NCBI GenBank assembly: GCA_903847545.1
Contig: CAINDZ010000414.1
Coordinates: forward strand, 1 to 30,788
Source: an uncultured bacterium
GTDB taxonomy: Bacteria; Krumholzibacteriota; Krumholzibacteriia; LZORAL124-64-63
Direction: 5' to 3'
DNA length: 30,788 nt
Shown here: one piece after another, positions 4,523 through 14,510 of the stretch
How positions within the stretch are numbered: the first letter of the stretch is position 1
How the letters are laid out: each line of letters starts with the position of its first letter
Notes under the pieces: model-generated
Told to the model about the DNA's origin: nothing
Seen by the model: only the letters and a program-made list of their open reading frames with translations
Databases searched by the model: none
Position numbers and translations under genes: made by a program

Positions 4523-5662
4523 CTACCGGATCGTGGGGAATGGGGAAGCGCCCGAGCTGCCGTGGCAACTCACGCAAGCCCGCCCCTCCTCATGACTCTC
4601 GTCATGACACTTCTTGCACAACTGCCCCTGGCCCACGCCGGGATACGGGCTCGGCAGCGCGTACGACCCCGACACGACCCCGTCGTCGGCCAGGCGGTAG
4701 ACCCGGAAATCCCAGCGCCCGGCCGCCGGCCCCGACGATCCGTGCGCCCGGTGGCAGGTCAGGCACATCAGCCTGCTGCCGGCCTGCGGCCCACTGGTGC
4801 CGGTGACCGTCATGGCGGCGTCCTCGAACGGGACCTGGGAGACATAGGCATCAACGCTGCTGCCGGTCCCGGGGCTGGCATCGCCCTCGTAGCGGTTGTA
4901 CCGCGTGCGTTCGTCGGAGCCGAGCGTCCCGTCCACCGGGTGCTCGAACGCGGCGCCGCTGCCTTCCTCGTGGTACATGCCGTGGCAGTTGGCGCACCAC
5001 CGGGACATGCCTGAGCGGTAGGCGGTGTGCGACGCGGCCGTTTCCGTGGCGCCGGAGTCGGTGATGTCGAGCCCCTCGGCGACGGGCGCGGGATACAGGA
5101 AGTTCGCCACGCCGTTCTGCACCGGCCCGGGGCCATTCAATGACCGGAACCCGTCCGAGCCGTGGGGGTCGTGGCAGCTGGTGCAGCCGAGCAGGGCCGA
5201 CGGGAACGTGCCGCCGGGGGCGTGCGACCAGCGGGGATCGGCGTTCGTGCCCCGCGCGGGCGACACGATGTTGTGTCCCGAGGCGTGGCCGCCGAGGGGC
5301 GACGCGGCCCCGCCGGCGGCGTCATTGATGTTGTCCTCGAGCAGCCACGTGAAATTTCCGGCGCCCCGCTCGGCAGGAGGCACGTTCGGCGCCGGGCCGA
5401 AGACGCCGTAGCTGCCGTGACAGGTCAGGCAGAGGTCGGTGGCCGAGGCCGCCACCAGCAGGGGGCGCGTGCCGTCGAGGGCGATCTCGCCGGCGGCCGC
5501 ATCGTGCATGATGTGGCAGGTTCCGCAGGAGCCGACGCCGCCCGCATGAATGGGGCCGCCGTGGGCCGGCACGGCTGCCAGCACCCAGGCCAGGCCGGGC
5601 GCCATGACGAGGACGCAGGCCTTGCGCAAGGCCCGGACGCGGCGGGATCGTGAAGGCGTCAT
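4523..5662 (-). CDS. OmcS-family multiheme cytochrome c, paralogue 2, seven CxxCH (379 aa)
   Basis: CGTCH, CLTCH, CTSCH, CANCH, CLTCH, CKKCH and CVSCH. OmcS-type motifs HAGGV..C..CHIMH, GHNIV, APGGTFP, GMSRWCANCH, VPFED and CLTCHRAH. Signal peptide present. Start moved to ATG 5662. Confidence 0.85.
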   Translation of the reverse strand: MTPSRSRRVRALRKACVLVMAPGLAWVLAAVPAHGGPIHAGGVGSCGTCHIMHDAAAGEIALDGTRPLLVAASATDLCLTCHGSYGVFGPAPNVPPAERGAGNFTWLLEDNINDAAGGAASPLGGHASGHNIVSPARGTNADPRWSHAPGGTFPSALLGCTSCHDPHGSDGFRSLNGPGPVQNGVANFLYPAPVAEGLDITDSGATETAASHTAYRSGMSRWCANCHGMYHEEGSGAAFEHPVDGTLGSDERTRYNRYEGDASPGTGSSVDAYVSQVPFEDAAMTVTGTSGPQAGSRLMCLTCHRAHGSSGPAAGRWDFRVYRLADDGVVSGSYALPSPYPGVGQGQLCKKCHDESHEEGRACVSCHGSSGASPFPTIR

Positions 5663-5703
5663 CGTGAGTGCCCCCATGGGGATACGGCCATGTTCGTCCC
5701 TCA

Positions 5704-5712
5704 ATTCTAGCA
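5704..5712 (-). promoter_or_regulatory. Possible extended -10 promoter for paralogue 2
   Basis: Minus strand TGCTAGAAT, downstream of the hairpin and about 40 nt before the start codon. -35 is weak. Confidence 0.45.
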
Positions 5713-5732
5713 CGGGGCAGGGGTTCAGGCCA

Positions 5733-5779
5733 GCCCGCAAAAGCGGGCGGGCCCCGCGGATCGCTCCGCGGGGCCCGCC
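5733..5779 (-). terminator. Terminator or stabilising hairpin after the omcS-like gene
   Basis: Perfect 15-bp stem (5746-5760 / 5765-5779) with a GCGA tetraloop on the minus strand, then CGCTTTT. An alternative hairpin GCCCGC-TTTT-GCGGGC (5733-5748) overlaps it. Confidence 0.7.
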
Positions 5780-5809
5780 TCAAGGGCCATCAGGCCGACC
5801 AGTCGGCTC

Positions 5810-6907
5810 CTAGTAGAGCTTGTGGTCGTTGTAGTCCTTGGCATGGCACTTGTTGCACAGCGAGCGCTGGTTCGCCGAGAACGTGTAGCCATAGTACTTG
5901 CGGTCGACATCGGTCTGGATGAAGCCGGTGTCGGTCGCCAGCGGGTGCGACTGCGAGATCAGCATGACGCTCATGTCCCAGCGGGCGGCGTCCGCGAACG
6001 GCGAGGCGTGGGCGCGGTGGCAGGTCAGGCACATGACTTCGTCAGCGCCGTCCGGGCCCACCGTGTTCGTCGTCGAGTTGACGGTCGCCACGTCAGCCTG
6101 CACGTCCTCGAAGGGCACCAGGCCGTTGTACGACGTGGCCTGCGTGCCGCTGGTCATGTCGTCGGAGCTCACGTACGCGTTGTACGCGGCGGCGATCGTC
6201 GAGCCCAGCTCGCGCGTCGGGTGCACGAAGTTGGTCGTGTTGTCCTCGTGGAAGTTCTCGTGGCAGTTCGCGCACCAGTCGCTCATGCCGCTGATGTACA
6301 CGGTGTGCTTGGCGTTGGTCTCGTCGCCGTTCGTGGCGGAGCCGACGTAGGTGCGGCGGCTGTTGCCCTTGGCGATCGGGGCCGGGTTGGCGAAGTCATA
6401 GCGGCCACCGGCGTAGAAGGGGCCGAGGTCGGCGCCGTACAGCAGGCGGAAGTTCTGGTTGCCGTGGGGGTCGTGGCAGCTGGTGCAGCTCAGGTTGGCG
6501 CCCGAGAAGTCGCCGCCGGGGGCGGTCGTCAGCGTCACGTCGGCAGCGATGCCCTTCGTGGGAGCGACGACGTTGTGGCCGTGGCTGTCGCCCTTGCTGA
6601 TGCCCGTCGAACCCCAGGTGAACGTGCGGGTCACCCAGTAGAAGTCGCCGCCGGGGCCGTAGCCCTGGCCGTTCATGAACTGGCCGTAGTTGGCGTGGCA
6701 GCGCAGGCAGGTGTCGCTCGGCGAGCCGGCGTTCAGCAGGAACTCGTTGCCGGCGGGATGGGCGGCGTCGACGACGGCGCCGTTCTGGCTGTTGTGCATG
6801 GTATGGCAGCCGGCGCAGTAGGCGACGCCACCATCATGGAACGCGAGCACGGAGCTGGCCGACAGGCCGAGCACCAGCACCAGGGCGAACTTGATGAGAT
6901 TCTTCAC
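5810..6907 (-). CDS. omcS: OmcS-like hexaheme cytochrome c, putative nanowire subunit (365 aa)
   Basis: Sec signal MKNLIKFALVLVLGLSASSVLA, then FHDGGVAYCAGCHTMHN, PGGDF, GHNVV, TLTTAPGG, CTSCHDPHG, GMSDWCANCH, CLTCHRAHAS and QRSLCNKCHAKD. These are collinear with G. sulfurreducens OmcS as I recall it. Six CxxCH. GTG start at 6907 with GGAGG 7 nt upstream. Confidence 0.9.
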   Translation of the reverse strand: MKNLIKFALVLVLGLSASSVLAFHDGGVAYCAGCHTMHNSQNGAVVDAAHPAGNEFLLNAGSPSDTCLRCHANYGQFMNGQGYGPGGDFYWVTRTFTWGSTGISKGDSHGHNVVAPTKGIAADVTLTTAPGGDFSGANLSCTSCHDPHGNQNFRLLYGADLGPFYAGGRYDFANPAPIAKGNSRRTYVGSATNGDETNAKHTVYISGMSDWCANCHENFHEDNTTNFVHPTRELGSTIAAAYNAYVSSDDMTSGTQATSYNGLVPFEDVQADVATVNSTTNTVGPDGADEVMCLTCHRAHASPFADAARWDMSVMLISQSHPLATDTGFIQTDVDRKYYGYTFSANQRSLCNKCHAKDYNDHKLY

Positions 6908-7065
6908 GAGTGAGCCTCCAGAAGCAAGTTTGCTGGTCCCGCACGACGGCACGGAACCGTTACGAGTGACCTTTGCCGATCCGCTGCCGGAAGGCCTGGC
7001 AGGATCGACGCCGAACGAACCATCCACCTTGCAGAGACGCCTTCCACGAACCTCTTCCCAAACCA

Positions 7066-7083
7066 GCCCGGCCGAAGCCGGGC
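7066..7083 (-). terminator. C(UUCG)G tetraloop hairpin just after the NHL gene
   Basis: Minus strand GCCCGGC-TTCG-GCCGGGC followed by TGGTTT. Could be a weak terminator or a processing/stability element. Confidence 0.45.
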
Positions 7084-7087
7084 ATGT

Positions 7088-8068
7088 CTATTCAGCCGTC
7101 CCGATGGCCTGGACGTTGAATACCTGCACCAGGCTGCGGAACGACTGCGCCACGTAGACGTGGCCGTTGCCGTCCGCCGCCATCGACACCGGGTAGTAGA
7201 AGGCGCCCGGTGTGTCGCCGATCGAGCCGTACTCGGCCACGAACTCGTTCCGGCCATCGAAGGCCATGATCTTGTGGCGCAGCTGGTCCAGCACCAGCAG
7301 CGTCCCGCCCGGGCCGGCCGCGGCGGCGACGGGGAACACCATGCGGCCGGGGGACGAGCCCACGCGACCGAAGCTGCCGGTCTGCTGGCCATCCTCGTCG
7401 ACGACCAGCATCACGTGGAGGTTGCCGCCGGGCACGCGGAACGTGCCGTCGGGCATCTGCGCCGGGCGCCCGAGGTTCATGTCCAGCTGGGCGTCGTCGT
7501 TCTGGCCCTCGCCGATGACGTGCGACCACAGTAGGGCGCCGGTGTCCTTGTCGTGCTTGGCCATCAGGCCGCTCGCGCCGTCCACCGTCACGTAGTGGCC
7601 GTCGCGTGCGACCAGCAGGTGCGTGGGGCGCCAGTCGCCCGCGGGGCGCTCGACACGGTAGCCGTCGGGTTCGCCGTAGGTGTCCAGGCGCACGATCGAC
7701 GCGTCCTGCCCGTCGACCGCCGACGTGGCCACGAGGCGGCCCTCATGGTCGACGGCGCCGTCGCTCGGCAGCGAGATGCCCGCGAAGCCGCCGGTGCGGA
7801 AAGTCTCGCAGCCCGCGGCGTTGAACACGTGCAGCGCGCTGTAGGCGGATTCGGTGACGCAGATCTCGCCGGCCACGGCATCGCAGGTGACGGCTGCGGG
7901 GCGGGCCCGGCCGTCGTGGTTCTGCGAGAGGTTCAGCGCGCCCGAATACTGGAAGCTGACCGTGCCGGTCGTCGCAGCCGCCACCGACGCAAACGCAAGG
8001 GCGGCTGTTATCACAGCAACACCCTGGAGGCCGTTCGCGATCGTGGTGGAGGGGCGATGGAAGGTCAC
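7088..8068 (-). CDS. Exported NHL-repeat beta-propeller (326 aa)
   Basis: NHL-like repeats (FGRVGSSPGRMVFPVAAA, YGSIGDTPGAFYYPVSMAADGNGHVYVA...VQVF). N-terminal hydrophobic signal. No CxxCH. Confidence 0.8.
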   Translation of the reverse strand: MTFHRPSTTIANGLQGVAVITAALAFASVAAATTGTVSFQYSGALNLSQNHDGRARPAAVTCDAVAGEICVTESAYSALHVFNAAGCETFRTGGFAGISLPSDGAVDHEGRLVATSAVDGQDASIVRLDTYGEPDGYRVERPAGDWRPTHLLVARDGHYVTVDGASGLMAKHDKDTGALLWSHVIGEGQNDDAQLDMNLGRPAQMPDGTFRVPGGNLHVMLVVDEDGQQTGSFGRVGSSPGRMVFPVAAAAGPGGTLLVLDQLRHKIMAFDGRNEFVAEYGSIGDTPGAFYYPVSMAADGNGHVYVAQSFRSLVQVFNVQAIGTAE

Positions 8069-11506: not shown

Positions 11507-12856
11507 TCACTTCGAGGCCGCGTTGTTGATGGTGGCGGCATTGGCGGTCGCCGCCTTGGCGACCTCGGCGACGACGCGCGCCACTTCCTGCTCGGCACCG
11601 GGCAGGATGACGATCGGGGATTCCTTCTCCAGGCGCGCGATGATCATGGCCATGTGGTCGCGCATCGCGTCGCGCTTCATCATGCCCAGGATCTGCTCCC
11701 GGCACTGCTCCAGGGGCAGCGGCTGCCCGGGCTCCAGGGCGACGACCTGCGCGACCACCCAGCCGTCGGGCACCTGGTAGGGCTCGGGCACCATGTTCAG
11801 CTTCACGTCCTCGGGCTTCAGGCCCATTTCCTCCGGCCGCAGCCACATGTCGGGGAACGGCGCCGGCCCCTTGGCCACGCGCTTGTCGTTCTCGGCCAGC
11901 CAGCGCACCGTCGCGCCGCCGAGGATCTTCTCGCGCAACTGGTTGGCCACCTCGGGCGAGGCCGCCTTCAGGCTGGCCATCTTCAGGCGCGGCGGCGCGG
12001 TCACTTCAAGCGTGTGCGCGCGGTAGTAGTGCGAGATCTCCTGGCTCGTGGGCGCGAAGTCGAACTGCAGCAGGACGCGGAGCGCCTCCTCGAGGATCGT
12101 GCTGCGCTCGAAGCGCGCGCGCAGCATCACCATCTGCGGCTGCTGGTCCATCTTCTGCGCCTTCAGCTGGCGGTTCACGGCGACCTGGGCCAGGTGGTCG
12201 CGCAGGATGTCGTCGCGGCGCTGCGAGGCGTCCGGCTTGCCGACCAGGCCGTGGAACTCGGTGAAGCGCAGCTCGCGCGTGAAGTCGGCGACCGTCAGTG
12301 AGCGGCCGTTGCCCACGCGGGCCAGCACCTCGGTGCTGTTCTGCAGGCGCTTCTGCACCGCGGCCTCGGCCGAGCCGTAGTCCAGCGACCGGAGCACCGT
12401 CGAGTCGACCGAGACGCCATAGCGGCGGAACAGTCCGTCCAGGTAGGCGCCGACCGCGGCCTTGCGCTTGTCCTGCACGCCCGGCGTCTCCGCGGGGATG
12501 GCCAGGGCGACGGAGTCGAGCAGTGCCTTCATGCACTCGTGACGGACGACCTCGTCGCACTGGTTGCGGACGGTGAACTCCTGGTCCAGGCCCATGCGGA
12601 AGCCTTCCTGGATGATCAGGTGGTTCTGCGTGAGCCGCTTGAGGATGTCCTTCGGCTCGCCGAACGACAGCGCGACGTTGTTCTCGTTCCTGACCTGCAT
12701 CAGGCCGAGCTCGATGTTCAGCTCCGTGGTGGTGACGGTGTCGGGCCCGACCAGCGCCAGGGGGATTTCCCGGGGTGTTTCCGCCATGGTGCGGACGGCC
12801 GAGGCCATCACGACGGCCGCGGTGGCCAGGGCCAGGCGCTTCGTTGTCGATTTCAT
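11507..12856 (-). CDS. SurA/PrsA-like exported chaperone with a parvulin-like domain (449 aa)
   Basis: ATG at 12856 with GGAGGAG and an ATGA overlap with the upstream stop. Signal peptide. Two 'LA.VG...T..EL/DF' SurA-N-like starts and a C-terminal 'A..L.EKI..G....LA...PEP..V.DGW.V..V' rotamase-like pattern. Confidence 0.7.
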   Translation of the reverse strand: MKSTTKRLALATAAVVMASAVRTMAETPREIPLALVGPDTVTTTELNIELGLMQVRNENNVALSFGEPKDILKRLTQNHLIIQEGFRMGLDQEFTVRNQCDEVVRHECMKALLDSVALAIPAETPGVQDKRKAAVGAYLDGLFRRYGVSVDSTVLRSLDYGSAEAAVQKRLQNSTEVLARVGNGRSLTVADFTRELRFTEFHGLVGKPDASQRRDDILRDHLAQVAVNRQLKAQKMDQQPQMVMLRARFERSTILEEALRVLLQFDFAPTSQEISHYYRAHTLEVTAPPRLKMASLKAASPEVANQLREKILGGATVRWLAENDKRVAKGPAPFPDMWLRPEEMGLKPEDVKLNMVPEPYQVPDGWVVAQVVALEPGQPLPLEQCREQILGMMKRDAMRDHMAMIIARLEKESPIVILPGAEQEVARVVAEVAKAATANAATINNAASK

Positions 12857-13929
12857 GGGGTGGGCTCCTCCAGGAGGCGTTGCAGGTTGGGCCAGAGTTG
12901 ATCGGCGCCCTTGCGCATCTGTTCCAGCAGCGTCGGCGTGTGCGTCAGCCCGAACCACCCGGTGTGCGGGGCGCCCGGGGCCAACACGGAGTCGGCCGCG
13001 CGGACACGCCCGGTCCCGAGGTCGAGCACGCGCCAGGTCATCGTCAGGTCCCCGGCCTCGCTGGCGCCGGCGGCGGCGTCCTCGGGCTCGGGCGGCGCGG
13101 CCACCGCGACGGCGCTGCCGTCGCGGCCGAACGAGACCACCTCGGCCTCGACGGCCAGGGCGACGCCGAAGGCCTGCGCCAGCAGGTCGCGTCCGCCGCG
13201 GTCCAGGCGGGTCAGGTCGCGACCGTCGGCCAGCGCCACCCCCGTGGCCAGCGCGGGATCGAGCACGCGCCGCGAGGTGTCGCGCACCGCCTCGGCGAGC
13301 AGGCACGTCGTGGCCTGGCGCGCCGCCAGGGCGTCCAGGCCGATGCCCGTGCCCGGCAGCACGAGCAACGCGGCGCCCTTGCCGGTCAGGTTGCGCAGCG
13401 AAGGCATCGCGTCGCGAAGCACGTCGACCAGGGCGTGTTGCCAGCGGCCGGTGGGGACGGGCGCCTCGGCGATGCGGATGTCGGCCAGCCTGCCCGTGCC
13501 GGTCGCCACGGACCGCCCGGTCGCCGTGAAGCGACCGTCGCCGGAAAGCAGCGTGAAGGCGACCAGCGTCTCGGCGCCCACCTCGTCGCGCAGCCCCGAC
13601 AGGAACGCCGGCGGCAACGACGCCGCCGAGCGAACCCGGAAGCGGTGGACGAGTTCCTCGGTGGCGGCGCGGTCGGCCAGCGGCTGGTCGGTGGCGCCGA
13701 CCATCGCGGCGATCATGTCCAGCGCCGTGCGGCGCACGGTCGCGACATCGGCCTCCAGGCCGGCCACGGGATCGCCCTCGATGTGCAGCATGATGGCGAT
13801 GGTCCCGGGTCGCGGCGCCTGCCCGGCGGCGACCAGCGTGTCGGGCGCGTCCCCGGCAGCGCCGGCGCCCGTCGCCAGGAGCAGCCCGGCGACGGCGCAC
13901 AGCAGGCGGCTGCCGGGCACGATGCGCAT
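12853..13929 (-). CDS. Exported protein with two tandem CsgG/TolB-N-like domains (358 aa)
   Basis: Signal peptide. Two 'G.....V...V/L ... R.V/LD..TGR' patterns (EVGAETLVAFTLL..RSVATGTGR and AFGVALAVEAEV..RVLDLGTGR). TGATG coupling to the upstream gene. Confidence 0.5.
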   Translation of the reverse strand: MRIVPGSRLLCAVAGLLLATGAGAAGDAPDTLVAAGQAPRPGTIAIMLHIEGDPVAGLEADVATVRRTALDMIAAMVGATDQPLADRAATEELVHRFRVRSAASLPPAFLSGLRDEVGAETLVAFTLLSGDGRFTATGRSVATGTGRLADIRIAEAPVPTGRWQHALVDVLRDAMPSLRNLTGKGAALLVLPGTGIGLDALAARQATTCLLAEAVRDTSRRVLDPALATGVALADGRDLTRLDRGGRDLLAQAFGVALAVEAEVVSFGRDGSAVAVAAPPEPEDAAAGASEAGDLTMTWRVLDLGTGRVRAADSVLAPGAPHTGWFGLTHTPTLLEQMRKGADQLWPNLQRLLEEPTP

Positions 13930-14510
13930 CAGAACAGGGTCTCCAGCGCGGCGCGGACGTTGGCGCGGGCCACGTCGAAGATGCCGGCCGTGCCGCCGCC
14001 GAACAGCTTGCGCATGACCGAGGTGCCGTCGGTGCGGGTCTGCGAGGACCAGACCAGGCGCCCGGTCTGCGTCTCGTGCAGCTGGTAGACCGACGTAACG
14101 ACCTGCGCGGGGTCATGCGCGGAGCGCTCGGTGCCGTATTCCTCGACGGTCCCGAAGAAGACGCCGTCGACCTGCAGTCGCTTGCCCAGTTCCATGACCT
14201 GTTCGGGGCTCATCACGCGGTCGGGGGCGATCTTCATCTCGGACACGATCGCGAGCGTCTCGCCGCGGTCGGCCACCTCGACCTGCCCGGTCTTGAGGAC
14301 CTCGGTCACGAAGATCGACTGCACGCGCTGTGCCGCGAACGTGTCCTGCGTGAGGTTGTAGAAGGGGAAGATGGCGACCCGGCGAATGAAGCTGAAGTCG
14401 ACGTCCTCGCGGATGTACTGGCTGGCGCGGGGGCCGCATCCGGCCGCCAGCGAGCACAGGACCACCAGCGCCGTGGCCAGGCCGAGGGCTGCGTTCCTCG
14501 TGTACTTCAT
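13929..14510 (-). CDS. CsgG/GNA1162-like outer-membrane lipoprotein (193 aa)
   Basis: Lipobox LAAG-C25 with Gly at +2. RVAIFPFYN, ELGKRLQVDGVFFGTV and ETQTGRLVWS match this fold family. ATG at 14510 after AAGGA. Confidence 0.7.
   Translation of the reverse strand: MKYTRNAALGLATALVVLCSLAAGCGPRASQYIREDVDFSFIRRVAIFPFYNLTQDTFAAQRVQSIFVTEVLKTGQVEVADRGETLAIVSEMKIAPDRVMSPEQVMELGKRLQVDGVFFGTVEEYGTERSAHDPAQVVTSVYQLHETQTGRLVWSSQTRTDGTSVMRKLFGGGTAGIFDVARANVRAALETLF

Follow-up and report, generated by a model that had tools for sequence, protein, structure and literature searches.

The window, that is, the whole stretch of 30,788 nucleotides analyzed here, carries on its minus strand a series of genes ending in two tandem OmcS-like cytochrome genes, a hexaheme (P0002) and a heptaheme one (P0001). 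The P0001 reading frame extends over 4523-5740, with the start taken at the ATG at 5662, and its CxxCH motifs begin at residues 46, 78, 160, 223, 300, 349, and 363 (table 1). In the direction of transcription, the order is a small multiheme cytochrome, a 732-aa protein without Pfam match, an LpoB-like protein, a 358-aa protein, and a PPIase-domain protein; then a very large multiheme cytochrome (42 hemes), an NHL-repeat protein, P0002, and P0001. The secF and secD genes lie on the opposite strand and converge on this cytochrome block. Pfam matches among the neighbors comprise NHL, Rotamase_2, LpoB (weak), and a large Paired_CXXCH cytochrome. An 869-aa open reading frame at 11507-14116 (minus strand) almost certainly represents two genes, encoding the PPIase-domain protein (about 447 aa) and the 358-aa protein, because the gene calls of syntenic contigs split it.

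Table 1. Position of the heptaheme cytochrome gene, its motifs, and neighboring features in the window
Feature	Position	Strand	Remarks
Heptaheme OmcS-family cytochrome gene (P0001)	4523-5662	-	379 aa; stop codon 4523-4525; open reading frame and translation
Probable Sec signal peptide, about residues 1-33	5564-5662	-	Basic N-terminus, hydrophobic helix, putative cleavage between VPA and HG
Heme 1 motif CGTCH (46-50)	5513-5527	-	Invariant column
H53, counterpart of OmcS His16	5504-5506	-	Aligns with CEGCHTMH of OmcS
Heme 2 motif CLTCH (78-82)	5417-5431	-	Invariant column
Heme 3 motif CTSCH (160-164)	5171-5185	-	Invariant column; Pfam Paired_CXXCH_1 match
Heme 4 motif CANCH (223-227)	4982-4996	-	Invariant column
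Heme 5 motif CLTCH (300-304)	4751-4765	-	Counterpart of OmcS C328-H332; invariant column
Heme 6 motif CKKCH (349-353)	4604-4618	-	Counterpart of last OmcS motif, C400-H404; invariant column
Stretch past heme 6 motif, residues 354-379	4526-4603	-	True extension is 357-379
Linker H357, candidate distal ligand of heme 7	4592-4594	-	Linker His in 52/52 subfamily tails
Heme 7 motif CVSCH (363-367)	4562-4576	-	C363, C366, H367
Hexaheme OmcS-like gene (P0002), upstream tandem partner	5810-6910	-	Ends ...CNKCHAKD...
NHL-repeat protein gene, first of apparent NHL/hexaheme/heptaheme unit	7088-8068	-	Pfam NHL
Promoter-like site, sigma-70-like, 11/12, with TG	8161-8134	-	Pattern match only
Terminator-like GC-rich hairpin and T-run, preceding the promoter-like site	8301-8269	-	Pattern match only

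This gene order recurs on five independent contigs, one of which is a 4.7-Mb contig of GCA_016712675.1, and the hexaheme/heptaheme tandem pair was also found on metagenome contigs. By gene composition, the locus has companions of the osc type, with NHL, PPIase, secretion-type, and large multiheme genes adjoining P0001. In Geobacter, roles in the folding, secretion, and morphology of the wires have been attributed to the genes that accompany omcS, the osc set (Shen et al. 2025, cited in PMC13194489 and PMC12977616), and the composition of the locus matches this set as cited there. From their adjacency, the osc-like genes may serve P0001. The stretch that separates the large multiheme gene from the NHL gene contains a terminator-like hairpin followed by a strong, near-consensus promoter-like site, and the NHL, hexaheme, and heptaheme genes may therefore form a separate transcription unit. 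Contigs from four metatranscriptome runs, belonging to four studies of lake water and ice, partly cover the hexaheme region (5784-7100, P0002 and upstream) at 90-99% likeness, most pieces being 95-99% alike; close relatives or carried-over DNA may be their source. For the heptaheme gene, the same contigs cover only a conserved 34-base motif (5159-5192) from other organisms, which says nothing about its expression.

The basic and then hydrophobic N-terminus makes P0001 a probable exported protein. The AF2 model places a helix at residues 6-29 of this signal region, and the family alignment has an AxA consensus immediately ahead of FHDGG.

Sequence and predicted fold both identify P0001 as a true homolog of OmcS (GSU2504) of Geobacter sulfurreducens, a relationship already proposed by the first-pass annotation of this DNA. 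OmcS (6EF8/6NEF) was the sole PDB sequence matched at an E-value of 1 or better (phmmer, 7e-26), and a family profile built from 116 members covered residues 1-407 of the OmcS chain of 6EF8 with an E-value of 1.6e-73. The motifs beginning at residues 46, 78, 160, 223, 300, and 349 align in order with the six motifs of OmcS, in which H332 is the proximal histidine of heme 5 according to the profile alignment. The alignment-based, cofactor-free AF2 model of P0001 has a mean pLDDT of 86.5. Foldseek retrieved OmcS alone as a significant match (6ef8_A, E-value 1.1e-15), and VIA aligned the model with 6ef8_A over 297 residues (Z 26.9, rmsd 2.7 A, 31% identity). The annotation had also regarded the His16 equivalent as retained, and H53, in the CGTCHIMH of P0001, does align with H16 in the CEGCHTMH of OmcS, in a column occupied by this residue in every heptaheme member (100%) and in 97% of the hexaheme ones. 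His16 is, in OmcS filaments, the inter-subunit ligand of heme 5. Pfam and NCBIfam contain no model specific to OmcS, and P0001 receives generic multiheme matches only.

The structural alignment spans residues 35-356 of the model and 3-407 of OmcS, whose terminus (...CNKCHAKD) lies three residues beyond its sixth motif in the profile alignment. Because the alignment stops at model residue 356, the counterpart of OmcS 407, residues 357-379 constitute an extension; the chain of P0001 does continue where OmcS ends, as had been claimed, and the seventh CxxCH (residues 363-367) lies exactly where it had been placed, at 4562-4576. OmcS family members are expected to have exactly six hemes, and P0001 departs from this in having seven motifs and a chain that runs on. 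On account of the seventh motif and of residues 357-379, we therefore treat it as representing a variant branch within this family.

The homolog set consisted of the best 120 matches from a search of 5.8 billion proteins, of which 110 were full-length; 46 of these 110 have a second CxxCH after the heme 6 motif. Fifty-four two-motif tails were listed, and 52 belong to what we define here as the heptaheme OmcS-like subfamily, with a seventh CxxCH 9-12 residues past the heme 6 motif and a histidine in the linker. The two outsiders are a 42-heme protein and a classical OmcS-like protein in which the gap is only 3 residues. In all 52 subfamily tails, both cysteines, the motif histidine, and one linker histidine are kept. 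The linker His lies either four residues past the heme 6 His or six residues ahead of the first Cys of motif 7; in the common 9-residue linker, of which DESHEEGRA of P0001 (containing H357) is an example, both spacings hold. C363, C366, and H367 are present in 100% of both heptaheme clades and absent from hexaheme members, and the only His columns specific to heptaheme members are those of H357 and H367, the other conserved histidines being shared with hexaheme proteins. The residues between and beyond the conserved positions vary freely, and this conservation spans proteins down to about 50% identity. In P0034 and P0096, the chain stops just 2 residues past the seventh motif, so that the motif itself is what is kept. 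These alignments indicate that the tail is real and under selection, far beyond what chance would produce. A search among homologs had been suggested in the annotation; the seventh CxxCH proves to be kept, with its Cys and His residues, rather than absent or unconserved among close relatives. A genuine site for a seventh heme is therefore well supported, and the tail very probably binds one. With the tail kept in more than 50 independent sequences, a reading-frame or assembly artifact was ruled out.

The AF2 model gives the tail block-mean pLDDT values of 84 (residues 351-360) and 80 (residues 361-370), with the last six residues below 50, and places a short helix on the seventh motif, as at heme 6. 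It is hardly credible that the seventh CxxCH should be free of heme, whether it were to form a disulfide, to bind a metal, or to persist as a mere vestige. By our own reasoning, heme attachment so near the C-terminus could be inefficient, yet the retention of Cys, Cys, His, and linker His in 52/52 subfamily tails amid variable surroundings is the signature of a bis-His c-type heme, and the chains of P0034 and P0096, short as they are, have not lost the motif.

The terminal stretch ACVSCHGSSGASPFP (residues 361-379, window 4526-4580) resembles the heme-binding stretch of class I c552/c4 cytochromes (E-value 0.005, domain E-value 0.41). In a class I cytochrome c, the domain comprises about 80 residues, its CxxCH lies close to the N-terminus, and a distal Met follows downstream; the seventh motif of P0001 is followed by 12 residues that contain neither Met nor His. 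This weak local match was therefore rejected as a sign of class I identity. The likeness is confined to the sub-clade of the window, other heptaheme clades being without it, and probably reflects convergence around the CxxCH-G...P turn. Other routes to seven motifs were also seen: P0157 has a second motif just 3 residues past heme 6 (CNKCHHQDCVACH), and P0150, P0186, and P0263 reach seven through an extra motif near the N-terminus. Judged from these alignments, heme number appears labile at several places in the OmcS-like family.

A maximum-likelihood tree of 122 rows, built without the tail columns, places P0001 in an all-heptaheme clade of 27 rows (SH-aLRT 96). The heptaheme trait requires at least 5 changes over the 122 rows, versus about 37 when labels are shuffled. 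Some hexaheme sisters hold a "GHD...P..P" remnant after heme 6, which suggests a simple deletion of the motif. At strict thresholds, no core column is specific to heptaheme members, and partial correlation with the tail is limited to Q347, position 99, and L336.

Within the genus of the window, the tail is present in eight out of eight species, the seven other orthologs being 58-78% identical to P0001, and each of the eight has a hexaheme gene ending in CNKCH-[AV]KD directly before the heptaheme gene. Other genera of the same family have a mix of six and seven hemes. The nearest named loci are those of Krumholzibacteriia, one same-family genome (G008) has a tail identical to that of a protein labeled Candidatus Krumholzibacteriia at NCBI, and the DNA runs that contain the window stretch are lake-water metagenomes. 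In its own assembly (3.8 Mb, 96.5% complete), there are at least 4 OmcS-like genes, and P0001 alone has the tail.

Several additional loci may be mentioned. Contig C499 of the same genome (6710-8625; L087 and L089) carries two further tandem hexaheme OmcS-like genes without a seventh motif; the second is truncated where the contig stops, and C689 11-352 (L090) may be its missing end. A same-family heptaheme ortholog (L098, G014:C7:110389-111492) has an in-frame TGA within the match; an error in sequencing, decay to a pseudogene, or recoding of the codon could each account for it. On L006 (2610-12395), from a genome labeled Alphaproteobacteria, a heptaheme homolog stands alone, preceded by response-regulator-like open reading frames (as judged from their first residues only) and followed by putative membrane proteins.

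The first-pass annotation had proposed that the extra heme could act as a branch point, a cap, or a docking site. A branch or docking role fits best, considering that the tail starts beside heme 6 and that the core barely changes. A cap is disfavored because H53 and the heme 5 motif are kept and because some heptaheme genes in other genomes have no hexaheme partner within 8 kb. More generally, P0001 could terminate or anchor the filament of the neighboring hexaheme paralog, serving as its cap, tip, or adaptor, as the strict preservation of the hexaheme/heptaheme tandem in the genus and in metagenomic relatives might lead one to expect. We regard this as very improbable: at three heptaheme loci of other clades (L002, L006, and L011), neither an OmcS-like partner nor an NHL or 42-heme gene was found within 8 kb, both halves of the OmcS-type interface (H53 and the heme 5 motif) are kept with nothing to mark a chain terminator, and the tandem omcS and omcT genes of Geobacter have no known mixed filaments (PMC12977616).

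On balance, we lean slightly toward the following reading: P0001, an exported cytochrome of the OmcS family that belongs to a conserved seven-heme subfamily, would bind with its tail a bis-His side heme for lateral electron exchange, and it would probably polymerize. The seventh heme, to judge from the tail sequence, would be of the c type, with H367 as proximal and H357 as distal ligand. A histidine 3-4 residues past the motif recurs four times in the family (CHIMH, CHDPH, CHGMYH, and CHRAH), and the first such His in OmcS (CHTMH) ligates a neighboring heme. The same pattern returns after heme 6 in CKKCH-DES-H, which suggests that heme 7 has H357 as its distal ligand; the "spare" histidine of the annotation is thus the conserved candidate. 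Hexaheme members conserve eight nonproximal histidines for six hemes, so that counting histidines alone is no proof that H357 ligates heme 7. Just nine residues separate motifs 6 and 7, and heme 7 would therefore have to pack against heme 6, which in OmcS (6EF8) sits at the subunit junction.

Heme 7 may well be a peripheral side heme that adds no new link to the main chain. Two observations suggest this. H53, three residues past the heme 1 His, is conserved in 100% of heptaheme members, an argument for a junction still built as in OmcS (heme 1' of the next subunit on heme 6, its His16' on heme 5), and the tail has changed at least five times with almost no core change. One might instead picture seven hemes per subunit in a single continuous chain, in which heme 7 forms the bridge from heme 6 to heme 1', since the tail starts exactly at the OmcS C-terminus, after heme 6 at the subunit junction. 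Such an arrangement seems quite improbable, because if H53 still ligates heme 5 of the neighbor, there is no space between heme 6 and heme 1', and a link of the conducting chain is unlikely to have been gained or lost at least five times with the core nearly unchanged.

Whether P0001 forms wires bears on a further alternative, namely a monomeric or non-wire OmcS-like cytochrome, periplasmic or at the surface, in which heme 7 lengthens the internal chain by one and docks a partner such as the 42-heme cytochrome or the filament of the hexaheme paralog. With 94.6 bits to OmcS versus 197 for P0002, P0001 is the more diverged of the two paralogs and may on this account be a non-wire member; among Geobacter paralogs, OmcS alone is known to polymerize (PMC12977616), and the cluster-linked paralog OscC is listed as periplasmic (PMC13194489). 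The strict conservation of H53 in the heptaheme group would, however, be hard to explain for a monomer, and the monomer model shows little order in the N-terminal arm, which one would expect if the arm packed on a neighbor, a weak argument. We consider this alternative rather unlikely. A complex prediction with two copies of residues 36-379 and four hemes obtained a score of 0.00, which speaks neither for nor against self-association.

Returning to the side-heme reading, heme 7 would let electrons enter or leave laterally in a wire-type cytochrome that otherwise has only buried hemes, a role that has been proposed for the exposed heme of OmcZ. P0001 would be made together with its hexaheme paralog and the NHL protein, downstream of the osc-like assembly genes, and would probably polymerize as OmcS does; we infer both the branch role and filament formation from the evidence given above. 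A more specific form of this proposal, which we put forward only tentatively and consider doubtful, is a "leaky" OmcS-type nanowire, in which the heptaheme subunits polymerize like OmcS and each exposes heme 7 at the subunit junction. If true, such a wire could charge and discharge along its whole length, via the 42-heme cytochrome, minerals, or neighboring wires, and in Krumholzibacteriota and other phyla the tail, repeatedly gained and lost, would act as a simple evolutionary switch that makes a wire insulated or leaky.

Among cytochrome nanowires, that of OmcS is the textbook example of an "insulated" one, and electron entry and exit along its length are still debated. A widespread heptaheme variant that adds a heme at the subunit junction would offer a natural test case for this question. 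Heptaheme and hexaheme sisters are 53-61% identical overall, with little differing beyond the tail, and their comparison would bear on the effect of a side heme on conductivity, redox window, and docking. With these data, the genes for OmcS-type extracellular electron transfer also extend to a lake-water lineage about which little is known, probably Krumholzibacteriota. Moreover, members of the family need not have six hemes, a fact to be considered in annotation pipelines that choose OmcS homologs by "six CxxCH."

In the Geobacter literature consulted, OmcS relatives count as hexaheme and are even chosen by their number of hemes (PMC12977616, PMC7399161); OmcT, which the annotation had described as hexaheme along with OmcS, is so stated there, as are the other Geobacter paralogs (PMC12977616). 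In the literature searched, we found no description of a seven-heme OmcS relative. An analogous published case concerns five-heme OmcE-like proteins of uncultured bacteria, in which one extra CxxCH is added to a tetraheme core (PMC13712944, mBio 2026) and AlphaFold3 predicts the extra heme to be solvent-accessible, comparable to that of OmcZ, with the core chain kept (PMC13712944). These belong to a different family of "insulated" nanowire cytochromes, and the OmcS family is not described in PMC13712944. For OmcE-like proteins, the idea that a nanowire cytochrome may expose an additional heme has thus already been published, and the seven-heme OmcS branch is, as far as we searched, newly recognized. 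The octaheme nanowire OmcZ of G. sulfurreducens has one branched, solvent-exposed heme (PMC13712944). The arrangement proposed for P0001 would work in the same way, combining a linear chain with an off-chain heme in each subunit for lateral exchange; no kinship in sequence or fold between the two was found, Foldseek and VIA having listed chains of OmcS, MtrA, and OmcE only.

Within its own family, P0001 can be compared with OmcT, OmcJ, OscC (GSU2501), and P0002, which are hexaheme and without the tail; as with the tandem of the window, OmcS paralogs of Geobacter are arranged in tandem or linked in clusters (PMC12977616). P0001 differs from OmcS in being about 23 residues longer past heme 6, with a seventh CxxCH and an extra conserved His, in its shorter internal loops (about 345 versus 407 mature residues), and in the phylum of its host, probably Krumholzibacteriota. 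It shares with OmcS the six motifs in order, the fold, the His16 counterpart, export, and osc-like neighbors.
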